Positions 10,250-64,000 of a DNA stretch of 64,000 nt are shown here, in pieces; position 1 is the first letter of the stretch; each line of letters begins with the position of its first letter. Origin of the DNA: an uncultured Candidatus Saccharibacteria bacterium (lineage in GTDB: Bacteria; Patescibacteriota; Dojkabacteria; SC72; JAFGCJ01); the NCBI GenBank assembly GCA_964508755.1, contig CAZDUZ010000001.1, positions 15,110 through 79,109 of the forward strand, in the 5' to 3' direction. The notes under the pieces are model-generated. The model worked only from the letters and a program-made list of their open reading frames with translations, was not told the origin of the DNA and did not search any database. Position numbers and translations under genes: made by a program.

Positions 10250-10338
10250 CCGATTTTTCTTTGCCTGTTTATTGAACATTTTTTCCGACAGGGACATTGG
10301 CACGTGCGTGCTGCTCAATGTCCCCGTCGGGTGGGGGA

Positions 10339-10440
10339 TCAGACGGAGTAATCTTTATCCAAGATTTGGATGAAGGTATATCCGACGAACATGAGTGTGA
10401 GTATCCCCACGACCGCCCCCGCGATCTTCAGCGCCTTCAT
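10339..10440 (-). CDS. Small membrane peptide (33 aa, MKALKIAGAVVGILTLMFVGYTFIQILDKDYSV) with a perfect Shine-Dalgarno; not in the ORF track
   Basis: Minus strand reads AAAGGAGGTGATCAC-ATG (SD 7 nt upstream), then a 33-codon ORF containing a single TM helix. Locally GC-rich codons. Confidence 0.55.
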   Translation of the reverse strand: MKALKIAGAVVGILTLMFVGYTFIQILDKDYSV

Positions 10441-10552
10441 GTGATCACCTCCTTTCGGCACAGAATCGTTGAGCGGCATTCTACTATGGGTTTCGTATGT
10501 GTGTAAATATTGTTATGACGTGGCTTTTATTGCTACTCCGTTCAATCATTTC

Positions 10553-10581
10553 TTTACAACTTCTCATTCTCTCTCTATAAT
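10553..10581 (+). promoter_or_regulatory. Sigma-70-like promoter (-35 TTTACA, 17-nt spacer, -10 TATAAT) driving the leuS leader
   Basis: TTTACA at 10553-10558 and TATAAT at 10576-10581. The predicted TSS falls at about 10588-10589, only 2-3 nt before the leader-peptide ATG, implying a leaderless transcript. Confidence 0.5.
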
Positions 10582-10590
10582 TCCCCCTGT

Positions 10591-10641
10591 ATGACAACCA
10601 GTACATTTTACAGCTTGCTCAGCCTACTACTAGCCCAGTAA
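10591..10641 (+). CDS. Leu-rich leader peptide (MTTSTFYSLLSLLLAQ, 16 aa) of a leuS attenuator
   Basis: ATG at 10591 and stop TAA at 10639-10641. Five Leu in 16 aa, including three consecutive CTA codons. It lies between the promoter and the terminator hairpin. Confidence 0.5.
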   Translation: MTTSTFYSLLSLLLAQ

Positions 10642-10675
10642 ACGGGAGGCTTCTAGCTGTAAGAGTATTGCTATG

Positions 10676-17227: not shown

Positions 17228-18129
17228 GAATCAATTGGTTGAAATCTGTGTTATATGGTTCGGGGCTTCTGATTTGGGTTCTTATTTATCAGACGCCTTT
17301 GATTGTTTCGGGCGCAAAGGTTTCATTCCTTGATGTAGGGCAGGGAGATTCTATACTTATTCGAAGTGGTAAAGGTCAAACGGTTCTTATTGATGGAGGA
17401 CCAGATGTATCGGTAATAACAGAACTTGGAACCGTTCTCCCTGTATGGGAAAGAGAGATCGATATTGTTGTGTTAACTCACGCGCATGATGATCACTTGT
17501 TGGGACTATTCGACGTGCTGAAGCGTTTTTCAGTAAAAGTTGTTATTGTAAGAGAAAAGACGTGCGATAGCAAAGTATGTCATGAATTGCTAATGTTGTG
17601 TAAAGAGCTTGAAATCAAAATCTTAGATCTTGATTCCCTTGAACCTCCGTATCAGATAGTGTTGGATGATCTGTCTCTTTCCTTTTGGTGGTCTAAGAAT
17701 GAAACACTACTCGATAATATAAATAACAGTTCAGTCGTGACTGTTCTTTTTCATGAATCGGGGCGATTTTCTGCGATACTGACAGGAGACTTAGAAGAAG
17801 GCGCTGAATATGAATTAATTAACGCATCTTCATTTTGGTATCAAATTGTTGCTACACATGTCACTCGAAGTTCTTCAAGCTTATTTACTGTGCTGAAAGC
17901 AGGTCATCATTGTTCACGTACCGCTAGTTCTGATGATTTTCTTCGTACGACAAAGCCTCTGTATGTTTTATGCAGTTTGGGAAAGGATAACCGTTTTGGT
18001 CATCCTCACGAAGAGACAATTGAAAGACTTCGAAATACCGAAAGTACTGTATTACGGACTGATCTTGATGGACGGGTAACTTTTTATATAGAAAACGGTA
18101 GGGTTGAAAGGGAGAGATTGGGCAGGTAG
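17218..18129 (+). CDS. comEC: ComEC C-terminal metallo-beta-lactamase domain, encoded as a separate or frameshifted ORF
   Basis: VSFLDVGQGDSILI ... VVLTHAHDDHLLGL is the HxHxDH MBL motif. It overlaps the previous ORF by 10 nt in a different frame. Its only start is TTG 17218 with no correctly spaced SD. Confidence 0.6.
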   Translation: MFVRINWLKSVLYGSGLLIWVLIYQTPLIVSGAKVSFLDVGQGDSILIRSGKGQTVLIDGGPDVSVITELGTVLPVWEREIDIVVLTHAHDDHLLGLFDVLKRFSVKVVIVREKTCDSKVCHELLMLCKELEIKILDLDSLEPPYQIVLDDLSLSFWWSKNETLLDNINNSSVVTVLFHESGRFSAILTGDLEEGAEYELINASSFWYQIVATHVTRSSSSLFTVLKAGHHCSRTASSDDFLRTTKPLYVLCSLGKDNRFGHPHEETIERLRNTESTVLRTDLDGRVTFYIENGRVERERLGR

Positions 18130-18288
18130 GGGGTGAAACTGCAATATCGATAGAATTTCTTTGTACTATTATTACGTTACATTCCCTTCCTATGGTAAAA
18201 TAGCGCGTCGTACGAAAATATGCACTGGCTGTACTGTGAAAGGGTAGTTTGCTTGAGTTTTGGCTTACCTATTGCAAGCTCTTCGTAT

Positions 18289-18361
18289 GCACCTGTAGCT
18301 CAGTGGATAGAGCAACTGCCTTCTAAGCAGTAGGTCGTCGGTTCGAATCCGACCGGGTGCG
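18289..18361 (+). tRNA. tRNA-Arg (anticodon TCT)
   Basis: Cloverleaf: acceptor GCACCTG/CGGGTGC, anticodon stem ACTGC/GCAGT, loop CTTCTAA, T-loop TTCGAAT. Confidence 0.8.
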
Positions 18362-18424
18362 TATGTAAAAAAGGCCTGCTGAATACGGAGTATGTATTGT
18401 TCGTGAGATGCTCAAGTTGCATGT

Positions 18425-18497
18425 GCATCCATAGCTCAACGGATAGAGCACTGGTTTGCGGAACCAGAGGTTAGAGGTTCGAATCCTCTTGGATGCG
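18425..18497 (+). tRNA. tRNA-Arg (anticodon GCG)
   Basis: Close overall resemblance to E. coli tRNA-Arg(ACG), but the anticodon loop is TTGCGGA (stem CTGGT/ACCAG). The ACG isoacceptor is replaced by GCG. Confidence 0.7.
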
Positions 18498-18547
18498 TTT
18501 TTTGATAAACAGTTTCTATCAGAATATTAACGGAGAATGTTGTATTA

Positions 18548-18621
<74 letters not shown>

Positions 18622-18684
18622 TATAATACATTTAGTTTGTGTCGCTTCGTTCATTTTGTTATACTTTTCTTTAGAATAAAAATA

Positions 18685-18940
18685 GATAACGAGTAGAGAA
18701 GTAACTTTCGAATGCTGATTCAGCAACCGGGGATGTTGGAAGCCCGGCAGCTGCGGGAGTGAACGCACTGCTTGTTTGTTTACTAATTTGGATAACACCT
18801 GAAATTGAGTGTGTTATCACAAGAGTGTGTCGTCTGGATTCTTTTTACCATTCAGATGGCAAATTCGGGTGGTACCGCGGGAAGAAGTAGAAAGCTCCCG
18901 TCCCGTTGTCAAATTGTGGCGATGGGGCGGGAGCTTTTTG
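18685..18940 (+). promoter_or_regulatory. T-box riboswitch leader (Arg-specific; specifier CGC) with terminator, upstream of argS
   Basis: AAATTCGGGTGGTACCGCGG at 18861-18880 matches the T-box consensus AATTAGGGTGGTACCGCGG at 18 of 19 positions. AGAGA (K-turn) motif at 18694. Candidate specifier loop GTGAA-CGC-A at 18759-18767. Terminator AGCTCCCGTCCC...GGGGCGGGAGCT plus T-run at 18885-18939. Confidence 0.7.
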
Positions 18941-19005
18941 TATTGATATTTAAAAACTCTCATTTCTTAAACGGCCATATCACTTTAAATTAATGCGCGA
19001 TTGTA

Positions 19006-21612
19006 ATGAAATTCAAGATTAGTCCTGAGTTATTAAGTAAGTATCCGACTGTCTGTGAGTACATAGTTGTTGCACGTGAAGTGAACAACGAGATTGCCGG
19101 TAAGTCTATTGTGGATAGAATGTCTGTTGTGACGCATGAGATAAAGGAAAAAGGTAAGGAGTTGTTGAATAATGAACGGTATTCGCGATGGGAGCGTGTC
19201 TATGAAGAGATGGCTCGTACTGCTTCTTTGAAACCCTCTGATTTCCACGCGTCTCATGTAGCTTTGACAAAACGTGCTTTTTCTGGAAAAGGGCTACCTA
19301 ATATTAATCCTCTTGTCAATTTTTATAACATGTACTCTCTTAAATATGGAGTTCCCTTTGGTGGGGAGGATCTTTCCACTGTATACGGAGATCTTATTCT
19401 TACTGTATCTAAGGGTGGTGACCTTTATAAGGGTATTGGAGAAAGCATTGTCGAAAAGACAAACGCAGGAGAGGTGACTTGGAAAGATGATTACTCAGTA
19501 ACCTGTAGACTGTGGAATTGGAGGCAAAGTGACCGGACGAAAATTACACGAAACAGCAAGGATATTTATTTCATTATTGATGGATTTACAGACCTTCCTG
19601 ATGTCGAGTATGAGAAATTAGTCACTGATTTTTGCCATGAAGTCCAAACGGTATTTGGTGCAAAAGTTGAGTACGGGAAGATCTCCGCGGAATCACCTGA
19701 GTTTGAAGTGAATTATGTTACAAAAAGTGTTTCTGGTATCGATGCAGAGACAGAAATGTCTTCCAAAAGTGCGTCAGGAAAAGCTAAGAATAAAAACACT
19801 GATAAAACAAAGAAAATTCTACAAAGAAAGGCTGCAATGCTGGGATTAAAAGATGGGAGTCATCTTTCAGAGAGAGTCACAGCCATTGTAGATGAAATTA
19901 TTGGGGAACATAATGGTGGTGGATCATCCACCCTGTCATTGTCGCAAAACTCTCCGTTTGGTGATTTTTCAACGACTCTCGCACTGAAGCGTGCATCTGT
20001 ATTGAAAAAATCTCCACAAGAAATTGCTCAGGAAATGGTACAAAAACTGGTATCAGATCCAAAAGGACAGTCGCTTTTTTCGAGTGTAAGTGCGGCACCG
20101 AATGGATTCATTAATCTTACCTTGTTAGATTCAGTACTTGTTGATGAGTTGGTTTCTGCATACAGAAAAAAAGATAGCTTTGGCAACTCTGAAGTAGGGG
20201 AAAACCGGACAATTCTAATTGAAAGTCCTTCCATTAATCCAAATGCCGCCGCGCATATCGGCCATCTTTTAAATCTTTTTATCGGTAGGGCGTTGGGAAG
20301 GTTATTTACGAAGGTTGGATTTGATGTCAAGGTCGATAACCTCATTAATGATCGTGGGATTAAGATTTGTATGGCAATGTGGGGGGTAGCTAATCTCTCA
20401 GAGTCTAGTAATCCTACTGAGGCTGGTTTAAAGCCAGATCAATTTGTCGGGTTATCGTATGTGAAGGCAAAACAGCTTTATAATGAGGATTCTTCAGTGA
20501 AAGAAGAGATTCAGCAGATGCTTCGGGATTGGGAGGAAGGCAAACCTGAGGTGATGGAACTTTGGAAAAAGGTCGTCGGATGGGCCTATGAAGGACATAG
20601 ACTGACATTTGAAAGACTGGATGAGGTAGAGGGTCATCTTTGGCTTGAGAGCGAAATATACAAAGGCGGGAAAGATGTGATTCAGTCATATCTCGGTAAA
20701 GGAGTAATAGAAAAACTACCCGATGGCGCGGTTATTGGACGTTTAGAAGAAAAATATGGAATCCCTGATGTAATTCTTCTGAGGGCCGATGGGACAAGTT
20801 TGTATGAAACGCAGGATATCTACTTGACGATGTTGAAGGTGAAGAAATTCAATCCCTGGAAGGCTATATGGGTTGTCGGTAATGAGCAGATTGCACATTT
20901 TCAGAAGCTTTTCGCACTATTTGAAGCACTCGAAATACTGAACGTGGATAATTTGTATCATATGGGATACGGAATTGTTGTTGATAAAAAGGGAATCAAG
21001 ATAGGGAAAAATGCAGCCGATGCCACCGCAGATACCGTTCTCGATCAGATGCGAGACATGGCGTTGTCGATTATGAAAGAGCGAAAAATTAAAAGAACGT
21101 TGGAAGATGAAGGGGATATTGCTGAAGCTGTGGGACAGGGAGCCCTCAGGTATGCGTTTCTTTCAAAAGATCCCTTTCTTGGCACGGTGTACGATCCTGA
21201 GTCTGCTCTTTCATTTACTGGTAGAAGCGGGCCATATATTATGTATGCCTATACAAGAGCAAAAAACGTGCTAGGAAAGGTATATAAAGATACTGCTCAC
21301 GATGAGGGTAAAGAGGTAGACTCTCTCTTGAGTGAAGATATTTCTTTATCACCTGAAGAGAAATCGCTTGCTCTTTCTATACTGCAGTACCCGGAGATCA
21401 TTCTTTCTGCTGCTAATGCGTATGCTCCAAATGTTGTTGCAGAGTACTTGTACAAACTTGCAAGACAATTCAGCAATTTCTACGAAAAGATGCCTATTGC
21501 TTCGGCAGAAGGAAACGAACGCCATCTGAGAATTCTTCTTACATCTCTTACGAGTACGATTCTCAAGGATGGTTTATCAATCCTAGGAATAAGAACACTT
21601 GAGAATATGTAA
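19006..21612 (+). CDS. argS: Arginyl-tRNA synthetase with an N-terminal B3/4 (PheT-like) domain fusion (868 aa)
   Basis: aa ~1-230 (ISPELLSKYPTVCEYIVVAREVNNE ... ) resemble the B3/4 domain of COG3382/PheT beta. aa ~300-868 contain the ArgRS N-domain, the class I HIGH motif (NAAAHIGHLLN) and a DALR-like anticodon-binding region (GALRYAFLS), ending ...LENM. Confidence 0.8.
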   Translation: MKFKISPELLSKYPTVCEYIVVAREVNNEIAGKSIVDRMSVVTHEIKEKGKELLNNERYSRWERVYEEMARTASLKPSDFHASHVALTKRAFSGKGLPNINPLVNFYNMYSLKYGVPFGGEDLSTVYGDLILTVSKGGDLYKGIGESIVEKTNAGEVTWKDDYSVTCRLWNWRQSDRTKITRNSKDIYFIIDGFTDLPDVEYEKLVTDFCHEVQTVFGAKVEYGKISAESPEFEVNYVTKSVSGIDAETEMSSKSASGKAKNKNTDKTKKILQRKAAMLGLKDGSHLSERVTAIVDEIIGEHNGGGSSTLSLSQNSPFGDFSTTLALKRASVLKKSPQEIAQEMVQKLVSDPKGQSLFSSVSAAPNGFINLTLLDSVLVDELVSAYRKKDSFGNSEVGENRTILIESPSINPNAAAHIGHLLNLFIGRALGRLFTKVGFDVKVDNLINDRGIKICMAMWGVANLSESSNPTEAGLKPDQFVGLSYVKAKQLYNEDSSVKEEIQQMLRDWEEGKPEVMELWKKVVGWAYEGHRLTFERLDEVEGHLWLESEIYKGGKDVIQSYLGKGVIEKLPDGAVIGRLEEKYGIPDVILLRADGTSLYETQDIYLTMLKVKKFNPWKAIWVVGNEQIAHFQKLFALFEALEILNVDNLYHMGYGIVVDKKGIKIGKNAADATADTVLDQMRDMALSIMKERKIKRTLEDEGDIAEAVGQGALRYAFLSKDPFLGTVYDPESALSFTGRSGPYIMYAYTRAKNVLGKVYKDTAHDEGKEVDSLLSEDISLSPEEKSLALSILQYPEIILSAANAYAPNVVAEYLYKLARQFSNFYEKMPIASAEGNERHLRILLTSLTSTILKDGLSILGIRTLENM

Positions 21613-21656: not shown

Positions 21657-22727
21657 ATGCGTGGTTTTCTTCGTTGGTCTACAATTATTCCGATGTATTT
21701 AATCATATTTGCTTTTGCTACCTTGATTTCTTGGTCATATGTGTCAACGGGGACAAGTATCTTTGAGGTTGTAGATTATACGATCTCCTCGCTAAATCCA
21801 AATGAGGACGTTTCGGTTGTTCGTTCTGGCATGAATGAAGATGAACAACAGGTTCTTGGAAGTACGGTCGCTTTTCCCTTGAATACGGAATTACCTAGTT
21901 ATACTCCGTCTGAGCTCTTTATCATCTCTAATGGACGAACGGTTGTCATTCCTTCAGGTACGGTATCTCAATTGATTCGGAGTGACTGTAGTGCGTCAGA
22001 AGGGTCTTGTTTGAAGGTACTTCCCTGTGTTGATGTCGATGCAGTAAGTGCATATGTTGCTACCACGTTACTTGGAATTCTCGATAGCGCTCAGCAAAAG
22101 CTAGTTGCACAAAATGAATATGGCAGTTTTTCTTATATTGCAGATGATTATCAGATAAACCGAAAGTTACTTATCTTTGATATTGTTACCGAATTGACCC
22201 TTCAAATAGAGGAATTTCATCGTAGCGTTTGTGTAGATGCAGAAGCATCTCTGGAAGACATTCCTATAAAAAGCAAACCGTTGGAAATAAATGTAAGATC
22301 CATGATTTCAGCTGGAACTGATGGTACATATGCACCTCACTACCTAGAGATTGATGATTCACAGCAAATGCTTTACGTGTGGAAGAATGGTCACATTTCT
22401 AAGGCATACCGTGTTTCAGGATTCTATGATGAATATGCAGTCTCTGGAGTATTTAACATCAAGAATAAAGCAAAAAATGCCTGGTCTCCCATTGCTGAAA
22501 AATGGATGCCATGGTGGATGGCTTTTTACTATGATGGACGACAAGATGCTTGGCTTGGGATTCACGAGCTGGTGTATTGGACTGATAGCAATGGGGTGTA
22601 TCATGAAGAAAGCTCTGACAGCATAGGAAAAAAGAAAAGTGGAGGGTGTGTTCGGCTTGATCGAGGACTGGCACAGGAATTGTATGACGATACTCCGGTA
22701 GGCACACCTGTGCTCATTCATCCTTGA
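21657..22727 (+). CDS. L,D-transpeptidase (YkuD-fold) with N-terminal membrane anchor
   Basis: C-terminal catalytic block LGIHELVYWTDSNGVYHEESSDSIGKKKSGGCVRLD carries the H...S-x-GC-[VI]-R motif of L,D-transpeptidases. Confidence 0.7.
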   Translation: MRGFLRWSTIIPMYLIIFAFATLISWSYVSTGTSIFEVVDYTISSLNPNEDVSVVRSGMNEDEQQVLGSTVAFPLNTELPSYTPSELFIISNGRTVVIPSGTVSQLIRSDCSASEGSCLKVLPCVDVDAVSAYVATTLLGILDSAQQKLVAQNEYGSFSYIADDYQINRKLLIFDIVTELTLQIEEFHRSVCVDAEASLEDIPIKSKPLEINVRSMISAGTDGTYAPHYLEIDDSQQMLYVWKNGHISKAYRVSGFYDEYAVSGVFNIKNKAKNAWSPIAEKWMPWWMAFYYDGRQDAWLGIHELVYWTDSNGVYHEESSDSIGKKKSGGCVRLDRGLAQELYDDTPVGTPVLIHP

Positions 22728-22873
22728 AACGGGTGATTATCGATTAGAATGCAAAAGTTTAGTACCTGAATTACTATGTGAGTGTAAATACTGTTAATGA
22801 TTCTCTAAGTCTTAATGTATAGTGTACAATACTGCAGATCGTACACTCGATCATGGGTGATCGTTAGAATTTT

Positions 22874-22947
22874 CGGGGTATAGCTCAGTTGGCTAGAGCG
22901 CGCGTTTCGGGTACGCGAGGTCGCCAGTTCAAGTCTGGCTACCCCGA
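22874..22947 (+). tRNA. tRNA-Pro (anticodon CGG)
   Basis: C1:G72 first pair, typical of bacterial tRNA-Pro. Anticodon stem CGCGT/ACGCG, loop TTCGGGT with G37, T-loop TTCAAGT, discriminator A. Confidence 0.8.
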
Positions 22948-24262
22948 TAGGTTCATACAAAGCATTCGTCTCTTCCTTCTAATTTCTTCCTTACATGTAA
23001 TTATTAGACACTTGCTGTTTGGTGGGTGAATTACAATAATGTCGTTTTGGAGGGTTTATGTCAGCGTTCTGGCAGTGGTAGTGGTCGCATGCTATGTTAA
23101 GTGTTTATCCTCATTAATGCAAAGCTTGTTAAAGAATGAGTGGAAATGATTTATTGATGCAGTGTAGGGAGTTGCGTTCTCTCGTGTTTGAGGTGGGGCA
23201 AATTTTGTATTTCTGTTTGAGGTTTCGGGTGTTGAGTAGGATAAGAGGATGTGGATGGCCTTTGAAAAAAATAGATCTGTAGAATAGGTGTCCTACTATA
23301 GGTTTTATTCTTACGGATCACGCTCCTTGGGAAGTATATATTCTTGTTCTCAATGTCAGATGATGATGGAAGAAAGAGTCATCGTTTCATTTGAATCACG
23401 AAATGATTTCCCGACGGGTGGCAGGTCGAAGAGATGAGCTTGTATAGTTTTGAACTCAGAATTCTGTCATCGCTCCATCGAGAGTGATTATTTTTTAGTG
23501 GAGGTCATGATTTGAGGTAAAACGGGTAACTTACTCTTGAGATTGCAAGATGTTGTGTTCGGTGATGGGTAAGACCCAGGGGACGTCTGGAAGATTTGTT
23601 TACGGCGGTGGAGGTAATAGAGCTTGTATTTTTACAGAGGAATGTGTCTTCAACGTTCTACGATGTTGTGGGTTACTTTCGTCTTAATTGCTCATCTTGC
23701 GATTGGTATGGTTGGCTTACTGTGTGGTGAAGGTTTACCTTCATAAGTATAAATTCTAGATTTGAGTTGAGACCTATAGGGTGTGGGTGGGAAAACGGCT
23801 TACGTCACTTTGTTCATATTCTATGATTTCTTTACATTAAAACAATAATTGTTAGTTTGACGGGTGGGGTGGGTGATGGGTTTTATGAAGTGACGTTATA
23901 AGGTTCTAATAAAACCATTCATTAGAAGGGATTGTTTTGATGGATATTGAAAATAGTAATCGGTCTCGCTCCGATAGAAACACTACAGGTCCGTGTTCAG
24001 GGCTCACGACTTTACGTACGACTGTCTGTAATTAAGTAGGGGTGCTGTAATAAGAATTGTGGTGGGTAAAAAATGTAAACGATATTGTGTTTTTTGTCAG
24101 AAAATTAGTGAGAATGGTCAAACGAATTGAAAAGTGATTTATAGAAGATGATGATGTGTAGAATAATAATATAGGTTTGAAATATGTGTGAAGAATTCTA
24201 TTATTTTCTGTTCATTTCTATAGGTGGTTGCTTAACGGAGTAAGAATCTTTACAATGGAATT
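22948..24262. other. 1.3-kb ORF-free, GT-skewed region (no ORF of 60 aa or more in six frames) containing G-quadruplex motifs. Candidate large ncRNA or remnant element.
   Basis: The ORF track is empty here, which is unique in this window. Plus-strand composition is dominated by G and T with very few C. GGGTGGGGTGGGTGATGGG lies at 23862-23880. GTTTGAGGT is repeated. It lies between the tRNA-Pro 3' end and the Lon-like gene. Confidence 0.5.
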
Positions 24263-25618
24263 ATGTCAAATGGAATGGATCAGGCAGAGCAGACAAATCA
24301 ATTAGCGGAAGTACTTTTTCTTCTTCGCAAACTTGAGGGTGCTCGCTTGCCTGCAGGTCTTCGTGAAAAGATTGATGTCATGCTCAAGAGACTTCGTAGA
24401 ATGGCCCGACAGGGAATTTCTGCAGGTGAGTACGAAGCGGTAGCAAAATATATCGACTGGTGTATGAATGTTCCGTGGGGAAGATATGTACAGGACAATC
24501 TCGACTTAAATAACGCAAAACAAGTCATGGATATGCATCACTATAGCCATGACAATATTAAGTCGGTCATTTTGGAGTTTTTAGCAATACTTAAGCGAAA
24601 AACCGAGCTTGGTGAAAGCGAGTACAGCTCTCCTGTCCTTGCTTTTGTAGGTGTGCAAGGTTCTGGTAAGACCACGTTAGCTCGAGCAATTGCGGAGGCT
24701 CTTGGAAGGCCATTTTTCAGAATTTCACTTGGTGCGATAGGACATTCTAGCGAGTTACGAGGTTCTCCATCCTCCGATTACTCTGGTCAACCCGGACAAA
24801 TTATTCGATGTTTAGTTAATTCACAGTGTATGAATCCCGTTATACTACTGGATGAGTTTGACAAGGTGAGCGGAGAAGAGTCATTAAGGAAAGATTTCAT
24901 GGCAATTATGCTTGAGATTCTTGATCCTCAACAAAACCGTACATTTAGGGACTGGTACCTTGATTATCCTGTCGATTTGTCAAAGATACTTTTTATTGCT
25001 ACTGCAAATCGTTTTACGACACTGAGCAGAGAATTGCTCGATCGTTTGGAAATTATTGAATTTAGCGATTATCCCATTGATATTAAATATCGGATAGCGA
25101 AAGATTATCTTTTTCCGTTAGTTTTAACGTACGCAGGTTTGAGACCAGAGGAGCTGGTAATTGATGATGAAGTCTGGCCAGACATTGTGAATCGTTTCGG
25201 CCAAGATCAAGGAGTACGAAGACTTGAAAGAAACCTCCAACGGGTAGCAAGGGTTGTCATAAAAGACATTATGACAGGGAAAACAGGTGCCGTACGAATT
25301 GATCGAAGCAACGTTAATCAATATCTTGAACAGGCATTGCCATCAATTGAGGCAATTCGCAATATCGATTATACCCTTGGTCCTGATCAGGGTATCGGTA
25401 GATCCATTAAAACTGCTTCTGTTGTCGATACAACCGGTGGTGTCGCGCACCTTACTGACAGTAATCCTGTCCCGAGTTCTATGGCATCTACGGACCAAAC
25501 ATCCGTTGTCGATTCTAGTGTACCGGTAACAGCAGTCGCAGATACTAGTACCCTCAGTACATTACCAGATCAAACTTCTGTTCAAGATCAAGCAAATCAG
25601 CAACCTCAACCAATCTAA
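24263..25618 (+). CDS. Lon-like AAA+ ATPase lacking both the LON N-domain and the S16 protease domain, with a Ser/Thr/Pro/Gln-rich C-terminal tail
   Basis: LDWCMNVPWGRYVQDNLDLNNAKQVMDMHHYSHDNIKSVILEFLA followed by Walker A GVQGSGKTTLARAIA, ...ILLDEFDKV (Walker B) and sensor/Arg-finger region IATANRF...LLDRLEIIEF match Lon ATPase-module blocks. The ORF ends after ~120 aa of low-complexity tail with no protease Ser-Lys dyad. Confidence 0.7.
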   Translation: MSNGMDQAEQTNQLAEVLFLLRKLEGARLPAGLREKIDVMLKRLRRMARQGISAGEYEAVAKYIDWCMNVPWGRYVQDNLDLNNAKQVMDMHHYSHDNIKSVILEFLAILKRKTELGESEYSSPVLAFVGVQGSGKTTLARAIAEALGRPFFRISLGAIGHSSELRGSPSSDYSGQPGQIIRCLVNSQCMNPVILLDEFDKVSGEESLRKDFMAIMLEILDPQQNRTFRDWYLDYPVDLSKILFIATANRFTTLSRELLDRLEIIEFSDYPIDIKYRIAKDYLFPLVLTYAGLRPEELVIDDEVWPDIVNRFGQDQGVRRLERNLQRVARVVIKDIMTGKTGAVRIDRSNVNQYLEQALPSIEAIRNIDYTLGPDQGIGRSIKTASVVDTTGGVAHLTDSNPVPSSMASTDQTSVVDSSVPVTAVADTSTLSTLPDQTSVQDQANQQPQPI

Positions 25619-25685
25619 TGGCCTTAAGCAAACCAGCAACCTCAACAAATCTAACGGCCTTAAGCAAATCAGCAACCTCAAGTTC
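25591..25685. repeat. 36-bp imperfect tandem repeat (2.6 copies) spanning the stop codon of the Lon-like gene
   Basis: AGCAAATCAGCAACCTCAACCAATCTAATGGCCTTA / AGCAAACCAGCAACCTCAACAAATCTAACGGCCTTA / AGCAAATCAGCAACCTCAAG, with period exactly 36. Confidence 0.8.
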
Positions 25686-25751
25686 TTCCCTTGTAGCATT
25701 GCAATCGTTAACGGTATCCCCGAGGAGAGTTGATTTTGCTATAATCCGTCT

Positions 25752-26090
25752 GTGAATATTGTAACTGGTATTGATATAGTGGATATTGCTGAGTTTCAAG
25801 CTCAACTCGATCGAGGTGGAGAACGCATGGTAAAGAGATGTTTTTTCGATTCAGAACGTGATAATGCTTCTATTGAGCGCCTTGCCGGGACATTTGCAGC
25901 GAAGGAAGCTGTCATCAAAGCATTATCCTTAGGCCATTCTTCGTGGAAAAAGGTTATGGTTAAACATGCGCCTGACGGAAGACCAATTATTCAGTTGTTA
26001 GATGTGCAATGCTTGATAATATCATCGGATGTATCTATCACTCATACTGATTCCGTTGCCGCAGCTCAATTTGTTGCAATTCTTTCATGA
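25752..26090 (+). CDS. acpS: Holo-[acyl-carrier-protein] synthase (4'-phosphopantetheinyl transferase, AcpS type)
   Basis: GIDIVDIAEF ... LAGTFAAKEAVIKAL conserved AcpS blocks. 112 aa. The stop overlaps the next gene's start (ATGA). Confidence 0.75.
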   Translation: MNIVTGIDIVDIAEFQAQLDRGGERMVKRCFFDSERDNASIERLAGTFAAKEAVIKALSLGHSSWKKVMVKHAPDGRPIIQLLDVQCLIISSDVSITHTDSVAAAQFVAILS

Positions 26091-28612
26091 AACGAATGAG
26101 TCCTTTCAACAATCTTTCAGAGTACATTTCTTCATGTGCTTCTTCATTCCCTGACAATACTGTCATGCAGATTCGTCGTGGTTTCACGACAGAAAAGTAC
26201 TCTTATAAAGAGCTTGACCGTTTGATGAGGCAATGTGCTTCATATTTATATAAGACTGGTCTGAGGAAAGGTGACTGTGTATTGATATGGGGTCCAAATA
26301 TGCCAGAGTGGGTAGTGGCGTTATTGGGAGTTCTATCAATTGGTGCCGTTTCGGTGCCTGTCAGTATGCATGCCACCCCTGAAACGGTTGATGAATATCT
26401 CCGACAAACCAATGCGAAATTTCTTCTTCGCTCACGATTTGTAAATGATCGTAAGCGACGTGGCGTCACCGCAATTGATCTCGAAGACGTTATAACATCC
26501 TCACGAAAGTATGAGGAGATGAAGCTGCCGAAGATTAAACCTGATGATGTAGCTGAAATAATGTATACCTCCGGGACCACGGGAGATCCTTCCGGGGTAG
26601 TGCTGAGCCACGGAAATATTCTTGAAGGACTTGAAGGTCTTCGTCTTTTGGTACCTCCTTCCTCTGAATTTCGTTTGCTTTCAATACTTCCGTTAAGTCA
26701 CGCTCTGGAACAGCTTCTTGGATTTTTCACTCTCATACGCTTTGGGGCAACGGTTTACTATGTACCCCGAATAAATCCTGTTGTGATTGTGCGCTCTCTT
26801 AACCGCTACAAAATAACTCATCTCATCGTTGTGCCTGAATTGATCAAGGTGATGTGGAATTCCATTGAACTTCAGGCTCAGCAAAAAGGAGCTCTCTTAA
26901 AGCTGCAAAAAGCATTGAAAATAGCTCCGCATCTCCCAATGTCTCTTCGTCGAGTATTGTTTAAGGATGTTCATAAAGCTTTTGGTGGAAAGCTAAAGCT
27001 TCTTGCCTGTGCAGGAGCTCCACTCGATGTATGGGTAGGGGAGAATTGGGAAAAAATAGGTGTCGTAGTGCTTGAAGGATATGGCTTAACAGAGACAAGT
27101 GCTGCTTTGACGGCGAATCAAATACATGCAAGAAAAATAGGATCCGTAGGAAAGCTTTTACCTGGAGTTGAAGTAAGATTTTCAAAGGATGGTGAGGTCC
27201 TCACTCGGGGTTTGAATGTCACGAAGGGATACTACAAAAATGCAAAGAAGACTAAAGAATCATTTACCTCAGAGGGTTTCTTTAAAACGGGAGATGTCGG
27301 ATATGTAGGTAAGGATGGATTCGTGTATTTAACCGGTAGAAAAAAATTCAAGATTGTTATACCGACAGGAGAAAAAGTATATCCTGAAGATGTTGAGCGT
27401 TCTTTAAATGATCACCCTGCAGTAAAAGAAAGTTGTGTTATAGGTATTAAAAAGGATCGTGGTGAGATTGTGCATGCGGTGCTCATCCTGAAGCGAGATA
27501 TTGATCCTGCAACAGTTATTGCTCAGGTAAATTCTCAGCTTGAGTCTCATCAAACAATTCTTGAGTGGAGCTTGTGGAAAGACGATGATTTTCCCCGTAC
27601 TCGGTCACTAAAAAAAGATAGAAACAGAGTAAAAGAGTATGTGATGGGTACTATTACTTCATCAAGCAGCGACCTACCGCAAGATAGTAAAGCCACTACC
27701 TCCCAACGTGATCCACTAAAGGATATTATCTCTGCTGTTTTTAGTGTTGACGCTCATTCTATAACTGAAAATACCTCTTTAGTGTTTGATCTTCATATGG
27801 ATTCATTACGCCGGATTGCCTTAGTTTCCCTTATTGAAGATGAATTTGGAGTGGTTGTGTCTGAACAAGATCTTGTAGAATCTACAAAAGTGGAAAATGT
27901 CCGAATCCTCATTAAGGAAGGGAAGAAATCGGTTGAAAGTAAAGCGATTCCTTCTTGGCCAACTGCTCCTTTCACCGTAATTATAAGAGATTTGATTCGG
28001 ACATTTCTCTTTTTTCCGATTTCAAGACTCACCCTTGCCCGTATAGAAATTGTGAACAAAGAAGTGGTAAAAAATATGAAAGGACCATCAATTATTGCTT
28101 TTAATCATGTCGGACATTTAGAGCCACTAATGATTATGGTCTCGCTTCGCCGTGCGATTCAGAAAAAACTGTTTACGCTTGCAGATGCAGATGGATTCTA
28201 TCTCTGGATTCGTCGTTTCTTTTTATACTTCTTTGCAGGTGCATTTCCAGTAGAGAAGCATGGTGGGCCTGTTCGTCAGACGCTTGAATTGGCTGCTGAC
28301 CTTTTGGAAGACGGGTGGAGCTTACTTATGTCACCCGAAGGAAATAGAAGTTCTGATGGAAATCTTTTAGAATTCAAACAGGGGACGGGTATGATTGCTG
28401 TTGAAACACGTGTACCTGTTTATCCTGTGAAAGTGAAAGGTTACCGCGAGGCACACGTAAGTCTAAAGAAGGGTATTTTTGACGTTTTTTTTGATTTCGC
28501 AAAGCCAGGTAAAAAAGTTACGCTTGTTTTCGGCGAGCCGATCGTTTTCGACCCCAATACTTCGCACGAACAGGCGACTGAGAAGATTCGTTCCGTGATT
28601 GAGAACTTGTAG
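26087..28612 (+). CDS. Tri-domain acyl-ACP synthetase (AMP-binding) / acyl carrier protein domain / PlsC-type lysophospholipid acyltransferase (Aas-like)
   Basis: AMP-binding motifs (MYTSGTTGDPSGV, GYGLTET, TGD...GRKK), a phosphopantetheine-attachment site LHMDSLRRIALVSL, then the acyltransferase motifs NHVGHLEP and MSPEGNRS. Confidence 0.75.
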   Translation: MKRMSPFNNLSEYISSCASSFPDNTVMQIRRGFTTEKYSYKELDRLMRQCASYLYKTGLRKGDCVLIWGPNMPEWVVALLGVLSIGAVSVPVSMHATPETVDEYLRQTNAKFLLRSRFVNDRKRRGVTAIDLEDVITSSRKYEEMKLPKIKPDDVAEIMYTSGTTGDPSGVVLSHGNILEGLEGLRLLVPPSSEFRLLSILPLSHALEQLLGFFTLIRFGATVYYVPRINPVVIVRSLNRYKITHLIVVPELIKVMWNSIELQAQQKGALLKLQKALKIAPHLPMSLRRVLFKDVHKAFGGKLKLLACAGAPLDVWVGENWEKIGVVVLEGYGLTETSAALTANQIHARKIGSVGKLLPGVEVRFSKDGEVLTRGLNVTKGYYKNAKKTKESFTSEGFFKTGDVGYVGKDGFVYLTGRKKFKIVIPTGEKVYPEDVERSLNDHPAVKESCVIGIKKDRGEIVHAVLILKRDIDPATVIAQVNSQLESHQTILEWSLWKDDDFPRTRSLKKDRNRVKEYVMGTITSSSSDLPQDSKATTSQRDPLKDIISAVFSVDAHSITENTSLVFDLHMDSLRRIALVSLIEDEFGVVVSEQDLVESTKVENVRILIKEGKKSVESKAIPSWPTAPFTVIIRDLIRTFLFFPISRLTLARIEIVNKEVVKNMKGPSIIAFNHVGHLEPLMIMVSLRRAIQKKLFTLADADGFYLWIRRFFLYFFAGAFPVEKHGGPVRQTLELAADLLEDGWSLLMSPEGNRSSDGNLLEFKQGTGMIAVETRVPVYPVKVKGYREAHVSLKKGIFDVFFDFAKPGKKVTLVFGEPIVFDPNTSHEQATEKIRSVIENL

Positions 28613-29481: not shown

Positions 29482-29555
29482 GCACCTGTAGCTCAAAAGG
29501 ACAGAGCAGCGCACTCCTAACGCGCAGGTTGCAGGTTCGATTCCTGCCAGGTGCG
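29482..29555 (+). tRNA. tRNA-Arg (anticodon CCT)
   Basis: Acceptor identical to the TCT isoacceptor (GCACCTG/CAGGTGC). Anticodon loop CTCCTAA, as in E. coli argW. Stem GCGCA/CGCGC has one A-C mismatch at 31-39. Confidence 0.65.
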
Positions 29556-29621
29556 TATGAAAGCTTTATTGTCGTCATGGGAAACATCTCTTACTAACCA
29601 ATGGTTACGATAGAACCATGA

Positions 29622-29696
29622 GCTCCCGTAGTTCAATCGGATAGAACGTCGGTTTCCGAAACCGAAGGCTTACAGGTTCGAGTCCTGTCGGGAGCG
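29622..29696 (+). tRNA. tRNA-Arg (anticodon CCG)
   Basis: Acceptor GCTCCCG/CGGGAGC, D-stem GTTC/GAAC, anticodon stem TCGGT/ACCGA, loop TTCCGAA, T-loop TTCGAGT. Confidence 0.75.
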
Positions 29697-63021: not shown

Positions 63022-63135
63022 TAGATATTTCGCATCTCCTACGCGAAAGGGGTACGAGTTCTCTTTGACAGCATGTTCCTACGTGGTGTAGGATGAAATT
63101 CAAACAGAAGTGTGTAATTTTGTAAACGCTGCTCA

Positions 63136-64000
63136 GTGGCTATCAAAATAAATAAAGCGGTTCTCGTTGTCGGTATTCTCCTCGTTTTTGTGGGTGTTTT
63201 AGGCGCTGCAGGCTTTGTAATTTGGCGTCTGAATCAGCCCGATGATGTTACTCCGGGAGAGTCGGAGGCGGGAGTTTGTATACCCCCTGCTGGAAAAATC
63301 GGGGATGATGGAGGTGGGGGATGTTGTGGATCCTATTCTGGAACTGATGGAGGTGTGGCTTGTACTGGTGATAGTGGGGGATGTCGTGATTGGGAAGTAT
63401 GCGATGTAAGCAACGGAGCGTGTGCGAGCGGTACTAGTTGTCGTGAAGCAAGTTGTCGGGCGGATGGTGGGGCTTGTACTGGTAATTCTCAATGTTGTAG
63501 TGGTAATTGTAGCGGAGGAACATGTCAGGGTGGGTCAGCTTGCAAGAGAGACGGGGATGCGTGTAGTAGTGCAGGAGAGTGTTGTAGTAACACCTGCACT
63601 GGAGGAATCTGTTCAGCTGCTCCAAGGACCTGTGATGCTGGTAACACCGGGTGGTGTGGGACTGATACAGGGGCTGATGGAAAGTGTAGCTGTTCTAACT
63701 TTAATGAACCAAAGTGTCATGTCCACGCTGGAAGTGGATGCGCATGGATTGATGGAGCCTGCACGTGCAATTCAGGAGAAGAAACAGGGGGATGCGTCAT
63801 TACGGGTTCGGCATCAAGTTTTACCTGTGATAAGGGTCCGTGCAAAGTTTCTGTAGCTGCTTGTTATACTGCTACTGCAAACCGAAGTGAATGTGAGTCA
63901 CGGGCGAATGAGGGTGTGGGATGTGCTACCTCAACTATTACTCTATCTGAAGGACAATCATATTCTCTAACTCCTCCAGGCAGTTGTGGTATTTATCAAC
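63136..64000 (+). CDS. Cys-rich secreted/anchored protein with tandem C-x6-CC-x3-C-x3-C (knottin-like) modules; 3'-partial, runs off the window
   Basis: Frame 1 is open from GTG 63136 to the window end and is not in the ORF track. N-terminal TM AVLVVGILLVFVGVLGAAGFVIW. Then units such as GGACTGNSQCCSGNCSGGTC and GDACSSAGECCSNTCTGGIC. Confidence 0.6.
   Translation, partial: MAIKINKAVLVVGILLVFVGVLGAAGFVIWRLNQPDDVTPGESEAGVCIPPAGKIGDDGGGGCCGSYSGTDGGVACTGDSGGCRDWEVCDVSNGACASGTSCREASCRADGGACTGNSQCCSGNCSGGTCQGGSACKRDGDACSSAGECCSNTCTGGICSAAPRTCDAGNTGWCGTDTGADGKCSCSNFNEPKCHVHAGSGCAWIDGACTCNSGEETGGCVITGSASSFTCDKGPCKVSVAACYTATANRSECESRANEGVGCATSTITLSEGQSYSLTPPGSCGIYQ

Follow-up and report, generated by a model that had tools for sequence, protein, structure and literature searches.

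The window examined here, i.e., the whole stretch of 64,000 nt (64 kb) that was analysed, carries mostly plus-strand genes of Patescibacteria-type content, and the top matches of its proteins are annotated as Dojkabacteria, Saccharibacteria or Patescibacteria. Roughly in its first half, a tract devoid of genes separates a tRNA gene from a gene encoding a Lon-like ATPase, in the following arrangement:

21657-22727, plus strand: gene for a YkuD-domain L,D-transpeptidase (Pfam YkuD), the left syntenic anchor
22873-22948, plus strand: tRNA-Pro(CGG) (ARAGORN, Rfam), the left boundary of the tract
22949-24217, no strand assigned: orphan non-coding tract, G+T-rich on the plus strand, with no ORF, homologue, structure or repeat signal
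23862-23880, plus strand: canonical G-quadruplex (G4) motif, GGGTGGGGTGGGTGATGGG, judged incidental
24218-24262, plus strand: conserved promoter-like block (CTATAGGTG.GTTGCTT, 17 nt, TACAAT, GGAATT, ATG) that aligns with three relatives (L004, L006 and L007)
24263-25618, plus strand: gene for a Lon-like AAA+ ATPase (Pfam AAA and Lon_lid), the right syntenic anchor

The initial annotation had described an ORF-free region of 1.3 kb beginning at the 3' end of a tRNA, and both observations hold: the tRNA-Pro(CGG) ends at position 22948, and with ATG, GTG or TTG accepted as starts neither strand has an open frame of at least 60 aa in the interval 22960-24263, the longest in the tract (22949-24262) being of 56 aa. 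No other such gap in the 64 kb comes near this length, the runner-up gaps without a 60-codon open frame measuring 408 nt or less. The dominance of G and T and the poverty in C attributed to the plus strand were likewise confirmed, with base contents of A.266, C.123, G.259 and T.353 and skews of +0.357 (GC) and -0.141 (AT). Among all 1314-nt windows of the 64 kb, the tract has the maximum G+T (0.612, +3.4 sd), the highest GC skew and the lowest C content, while its GC (38% vs. about 42% in the window and in the genome) is close to that of the other intergenic DNA within the window. Of the features described here, none goes beyond chance except the composition and the gap length.

Two other regions of the window are worth mentioning with regard to composition. 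A nearly equal skew was observed at 62.3-63.7 kb (G+T 0.606, GC skew 0.345), in DNA coding for a Cys/Gly-rich, secreted protein; the open frame at 63118-63999, which runs off the end of the window, encodes such a protein with an N-terminal hydrophobic segment and has no Pfam matches. Skew of this magnitude therefore also arises in coding DNA here. The 423 nt upstream of the LeuRS gene (10250-10672) have a negative GC skew and the highest GC of the intergenic regions (0.46), in a ranking that excludes the gap at 63022-64000 (GC 0.49), in reality a coding frame; no Rfam family matched these 423 nt at the gathering score.

The four closest relatives (L004, L006, L007 and L008) are syntenic with the window. 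In L004 a B3_4-fused ArgRS gene, the YkuD gene, tRNA-Pro(CGG), seven genes occupying the slot and the Lon-like gene follow one another, and both sides of the slot are collinear with the window. The seven genes encode an M20 peptidase, a DUF1295 protein, an archease, two small ORFs, RtcB and, on the minus strand, a membrane protein; downstream of the Lon-like gene lie those for a 4'-phosphopantetheinyl transferase (ACPS) and an AMP-binding/PP-binding/acyltransferase fusion, two tRNA-Arg, PEGA and MreB. The order in L006 is like that of L004, except that LigT stands where L004 has the small ORFs. In both genomes the YkuD gene likewise precedes the tRNA-Pro(CGG), which is 99-100% identical to that of the window and has the equivalent syntenic position. 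The slot between this tRNA and the Lon-like gene thus contains about 5.8 kb of genes in L004 and L006, and 1.3 kb of gene-free DNA in the window. None of the slot genes of the relatives was found anywhere in the 64 kb, including the archease(-LigT)-RtcB RNA-repair cassette (L004 4635-7004; L006 2393-4806). In L007 and L008 a homologous minus-strand membrane-protein gene stands directly upstream of the Lon-like gene, so that the two genes are divergent in four out of four closest relatives and the former is missing in the window. The copies of the gene are located as follows:

L004 7011-7865, minus strand: membrane-anchored protein
L006 4863-5813, minus strand: membrane-anchored protein
L008 2631-3716, minus strand: membrane-anchored protein
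L007 3-623, minus strand: membrane-anchored protein, cut by the contig end

The protein, conserved but uncharacterised, combines a low-complexity N-terminus with a single transmembrane segment, a linker of acidic character and, at the C-terminus, a conserved domain of about 190 aa; its three complete copies (L004, L006, L008) have no precomputed Pfam match. Neighbour-joining of the Lon-like proteins groups the window with L004 and L006, and L007 and L008 fall outside this group. Since the window is nested among genomes carrying the genes, the gene block, or at least the membrane-protein gene, was ancestral and has been lost in the lineage of the window.

The Lon-like gene had been noted for lacking an N-terminal domain, which is correct, as the protein consists of an AAA domain and a Lon lid with neither N-domain nor protease domain. 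This architecture is nonetheless the norm of a conserved Patescibacteria family of 369-458 aa, and the gene is accordingly intact and not truncated by the tract; full-length homologues with the same architecture share 74-83% identity in the best BLASTP local alignments, and 76-87% when the 369 ungapped columns of the tree alignment are compared. The protein of the window also has a Ser/Thr/Gln/Pro-rich C-terminal tail. Genes for ACPS and for the AMP-binding/carrier-protein/acyltransferase fusion follow the Lon-like gene in the window (24263-28612) and in L004, L005, L006 and L008, and a TP_methylase gene on the opposite strand follows it in L007.

Similarity to the relatives ends within about 3 nt past the 3' end of tRNA-Pro and returns about 45 nt before the Lon-like ATG, at the promoter-like block, where TACAAT lies about 17-19 nt after GTTGC across the aligned genomes and no consensus RNA structure was found. 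The block can be read as a weak -35 element (TTGCTT), a 17-nt spacer and a TACAAT -10 element, with transcription predicted to start at or next to the ATG, and the Lon-like mRNA may be leaderless. As the block abuts the start codon, the operon would not need the upstream tract as a leader, and a long 5' leader of the Lon-like gene appears unlikely.

All six frames of the tract resemble random sequence. Over about 437 codons each, the frames contain 30, 29 and 30 stops on the plus strand and 25, 23 and 22 on the minus strand, against about 32 and 25, respectively, expected by hand calculation from the base composition. The period-3 power ranges from 0.27 to 1.41, as compared to a mean of 4.1 (minimum 1.43) in coding DNA and 0.94 in shuffled sequences. 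Codon usage was scored for ten ORFs of 30-56 aa: not one reached the 95th percentile of spurious ORFs, and most scored lower than the 5th percentile of real genes. When the six frames were searched against Pfam and against 5.8 billion proteins, no family and no protein was retrieved at E<=10. Genes for small proteins were rejected as an explanation, their codon scores being low and the ORFs being absent from the 5.8-billion set and uncalled on the indexed contigs. A recent frameshifted pseudogene, of either the syntenic genes or paralogues within the window, was equally rejected, given that there is no remnant, no depletion of stops and no 3-periodicity.

Searches at the nucleotide level and for remnants were in line with these results. 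Neither blastn, tblastx and tblastn with the slot genes of the relatives nor a profile HMM built from the membrane protein matched the tract. No paralogues of the window proteins were found in it, the rest of the 64 kb has no second copy of it, and phage and plasmid collections gave no blastn match. Exact-pattern searches, which are of low sensitivity, gave no match to the tract in viral contigs and a single one in metagenome contigs (L013), a chance match with no other similarity to the window. A search of genome contigs yielded only relatives at 66-69% identity whose upstream genes are different, and no copy of the tract from within the species or from a close relative was retrieved; the same species, recognised through the window proteins, is represented by Logan contigs of only 1-2 kb, none of which spans the tract. 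Exact identity of the ACPS or YkuD protein shows the species to be present in the runs SRR10812147, SRR10812146 and SRR23829994. The missing similarity has to be read against the divergence of the neutral sites. Between the window and L004, four-fold degenerate sites in codons whose residue is identical agree in 27.1% of cases, where 24.6% is expected from base frequencies. Neutral sites are therefore saturated and old decayed DNA would be unrecognisable, so that a lack of similarity is expected in either case and is uninformative.

Based on the above, we consider with moderate confidence that in this lineage genes were lost or replaced in a variable slot adjacent to a tRNA and that the tract is the scar they left, decaying neutrally; the promoter block at its 3' edge is conserved and its G4 motif would be incidental. 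The ancestral block between tRNA-Pro(CGG) and the Lon-like gene would have been lost or replaced in the lineage of the window, and the leftover DNA would have remained unconstrained long enough for reading frames and homology to vanish completely, with its composition relaxing toward the mutational bias of the leading strand, with which the flanking genes are co-oriented. Such a bias would consist in the loss of C to T, making the plus strand G+T-rich and C-poor, and selection would have been retained only on the last 45 nt, the promoter and start region of the Lon-like/ACPS/acyl-ligase operon. The interval from 22949 to about 24217 would then be a spacer that is non-functional or at most weakly functional. 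The tract may be either what is left of the ancestral genes after shrinkage and scrambling or unrelated DNA that replaced them.

The composition gives partial support to the neutrality of the tract and to a mutational cause of its skew. The GC skew is positive throughout the window and the genes are mostly on the plus strand, consistent with a leading strand. When four-fold sites are expressed as plus-strand bases, C and T are.137 and.383 in plus-strand genes and.124 and.332 in minus-strand genes. The C (.123) and T (.353) of the tract match these values, hence its poverty in C and richness in T are those of unconstrained sites on this strand. Its G (.259), on the other hand, is higher than in any of the neutral proxies (.18-.23), and averaging the four-fold sites gives skews of about +0.22 for GC and -0.08 for AT (hand-derived), which the tract surpasses by a factor of about 1.6-1.8. 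The excess of G and the stronger skews imply that the composition is explained only in part, which counts against the tract being a relic. The excess may possibly reflect an incomplete relaxation from a more GC-rich ancestor (relatives have a GC of 47-51%), an additional transcription-associated C-to-T bias downstream of the tRNA, or weak selection. The size of the tract also counts against a relic, as the other intergenic gaps in the 64 kb are of about 0.5 kb or less and a neutral tract of 1.3 kb is unusual in a compact genome, where deletion bias should remove it.

The position of the tract raises the question of whether foreign DNA, either an integrative element or horizontally acquired non-coding sequence, entered next to tRNA-Pro, displaced the ancestral block and then decayed. 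The 3' end of a tRNA gene is a classic integration site, the tract does not resemble the genes that occupied the slot ancestrally, and the slot contents do vary among the relatives (the M20 peptidase is confined to L004, LigT to L006, and L008 differs in the genes upstream). The dissimilarity to the ancestral genes nevertheless tells little when neutral sites are saturated, and the hallmarks of integration are missing. The 3' end of the tRNA is not directly repeated at lengths of 12-29 nt with up to 2-3 mismatches: when 3 mismatches are allowed, the 29-nt 3' end has no occurrence outside the tRNA, and 3' ends of 12-16 nt, allowing up to 2 mismatches, are absent from 22949-26000. The six frames contain no integrase, transposase or other protein remnant, terminal inverted repeats do not go beyond chance, and the phage and plasmid collections gave no match. 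An integrated element proper was rejected for the absence of an att repeat, an integrase and phage or plasmid similarity, and of the decayed integrated element proposed in the initial annotation only the decay stands, in a generic sense, while its integration found no support. Overall, we regard a decayed foreign insert as unlikely.

A different possibility is that the tract is a lineage-specific, G+U-rich non-coding RNA (ncRNA) of the plus strand, transcribed by read-through from tRNA-Pro or from a promoter of its own and acting as a platform for binding proteins or RNA, possibly through a G-quadruplex. The canonical G4 motif announced at 23862-23880 is indeed present, and a G4 appears in only 1.3% of mononucleotide shuffles of the tract; another one occurs in the window at 18101-18133. 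The tract is also the only long gene-free one that persists in this compact genome, it has the same orientation as the flanking tRNA and operon, its strand asymmetry is the most extreme of the window with G beyond the neutral proxies, and the plus strand carries, at 23469-23498, a terminator-like hairpin with a T-run.

Against this, the tract is missing from all four closest relatives (4/4), which have genes in the slot, it has no homologue in any of the collections searched, and no Rfam family was recovered even at E<=10. Rfam returned only tRNAs at the gathering score over the whole window, and at E<=10 on 22700-24400 it returned the tRNA and three chance-level matches far below the gathering score. 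Known families (GOLLD, ROOL, OLE, raiA, HEARO, group I/II introns, rRNA, RNase P, tmRNA) were consequently rejected as below the gathering threshold, and the first five, which had been named as the models to look for, did not match at the gathering score or at E<=10. Fold z-scores against dinucleotide shuffles, calculated in sixteen 150-nt windows, averaged -0.44 on the plus strand and -0.02 on the minus strand, with a minimum of -1.75 and no window below -2. The hairpin segment around the G4 reached a z of -1.82, which is not significant, and a structured RNA was rejected on thermodynamic grounds since the tract gives no fold-energy signal. The low folding energies of the plus strand are due to G-U pairing in G+T-rich sequence. 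Moreover, promoter-like sites are not enriched in the tract (6 vs. 4.3 expected), and a GC of 38%, below the genome average of 42%, is the opposite of what is typical for structured RNAs in AT-rich genomes. The large ncRNA suggested at the outset was in conclusion not upheld by the Rfam results, by the fold z-scores or by the GC content. A plus-strand ncRNA appears improbable to us, and it survives mainly on the persistence of 1.3 kb without genes in a compact genome and on the unexplained excess of G. Its bolder version would be an RNA of about 1.2 kb, specific to the lineage, G+U-rich and of low structure, with a possible G-quadruplex, running in the direction of tRNA-Pro in a slot from which RtcB-archease was lost, and representing a new lncRNA class of very narrow taxonomic range among bacteria; this seems very improbable.

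The G4 motif and the short GT-rich words can be interpreted as by-products of a G-rich sequence. Of the repeats that had been pointed out, words of the GTTTGAGGT type do exist, this one twice (at 23186 and 23215) and TTTGAGGT additionally at 23511, yet their number is within that of shuffled sequences: no top k-mer count exceeds the 95th percentile of the dinucleotide-shuffle maximum, and the over-represented words GGTGGG, TTTGAGGT and ATGATTT were rejected because they fall within the maximum-count distribution of the shuffles. Neither direct, tandem nor dispersed repeat families were found in the tract, and inverted repeats do not go beyond chance. TIGR arrays of Patescibacteria and phages are made of 36-nt tandem units with conserved repeat positions and have an adjacent Tas gene with a Nop domain (PMC12045711). 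The autocorrelation of the tract is within chance and its column information at period 36 has a z of -0.66; a CRISPR or TIGR array was thus rejected for lack of repeats and of periodicity, the flanking genes being neither Cas nor Nop-domain genes.

A replication-associated region, also put forward in the initial annotation, did not withstand analysis. The cumulative GC skew rises monotonically through 20-30 kb with no change of sign, leaving no ori/ter switch in the tract. DnaA boxes do not form a cluster, with one 1-mismatch box in the tract (23105) and 22 in the window against 19 expected, and neither dnaA nor dnaN is a neighbour; an origin or terminus of replication was rejected on these bases. 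With ordinary genes in the slot of the relatives and no conservation of the tract, the more exciting readings of the region are refuted, and the interpretation given initially is supported in part, two of its three options failing the tests.

An artefact of assembly was also considered, in which the metagenome-assembled contig would contain a chimeric or wrongly joined segment. An independent Logan contig of the same species that carries the YkuD gene (L012) stops about 176 nt after the YkuD stop codon, which by arithmetic rather than alignment corresponds to about position 22903 of the window, inside tRNA-Pro, and no independent contig spanning the tract was recovered. Short Logan contigs, however, break everywhere and not specifically at the tract, whose GC is moreover close to that of the other intergenic DNA of the window. 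Both flanks match the order and orientation of the relatives, so that two precise false joins would be needed, and we find an artefact scarcely credible.

Host-restricted bacteria, among them Mycobacterium leprae, Rickettsia and Sodalis, offer known examples of gene-loss scars and of pseudogene remnants at a late stage. The tract resembles the scars of reduced genomes in being free of genes where the relatives hold functional ones, with flanking synteny intact, and in having neither reading frame nor periodicity and a composition that would have relaxed toward the mutational bias. It differs from them in that no remaining similarity to the lost genes can be demonstrated, its derivation resting on position, and the organism is of Patescibacteria type with an otherwise very compact genome. 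With tRNA-adjacent islands and prophage remnants the tract shares a location immediately 3' of a tRNA and a slot whose content varies among relatives, but it lacks an att duplication, a remnant of an integrase and similarity to phages or plasmids, and the slot of the relatives is occupied by housekeeping-type genes instead of being an empty site. Large bacterial ncRNAs (GOLLD, ROOL, OLE, HEARO, raiA) measure about 0.5-1 kb or more, and some of them adjoin tRNA genes. The tract is in a similar size class and likewise gene-free; in contrast to them it shows no covariance-model match, structure signal, enrichment in GC or homologues in relatives.

If the tract is indeed a scar of gene loss, the finding is an ordinary one: an RtcB-archease cassette, a peptidase and a membrane protein would have been lost at a variable slot next to a tRNA, and very compact genomes could still hold about 1 kb of apparently dead DNA. 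For genome scans it would also call for caution, since an unconstrained leading, co-transcribed strand would show just this combination, a strong G+T skew with a single G4 motif and no ORFs, which would not be evidence of an RNA gene. The tract would acquire greater importance only if its transcription or conservation were demonstrated.

A last observation concerns the left flank. The ArgRS gene upstream of the YkuD gene (19006-21612, 868 aa) encodes an N-terminal B3_4 domain, as found in the PheRS beta subunit, and this fusion is kept in L004. The genes for tRNA-Arg TCT, GCG and TCG are directly upstream of it (region 18288-21612) and those for CCT and CCG 8 kb downstream (29482-29696), so that all five tRNA-Arg genes of the window (5/5) cluster around ArgRS.
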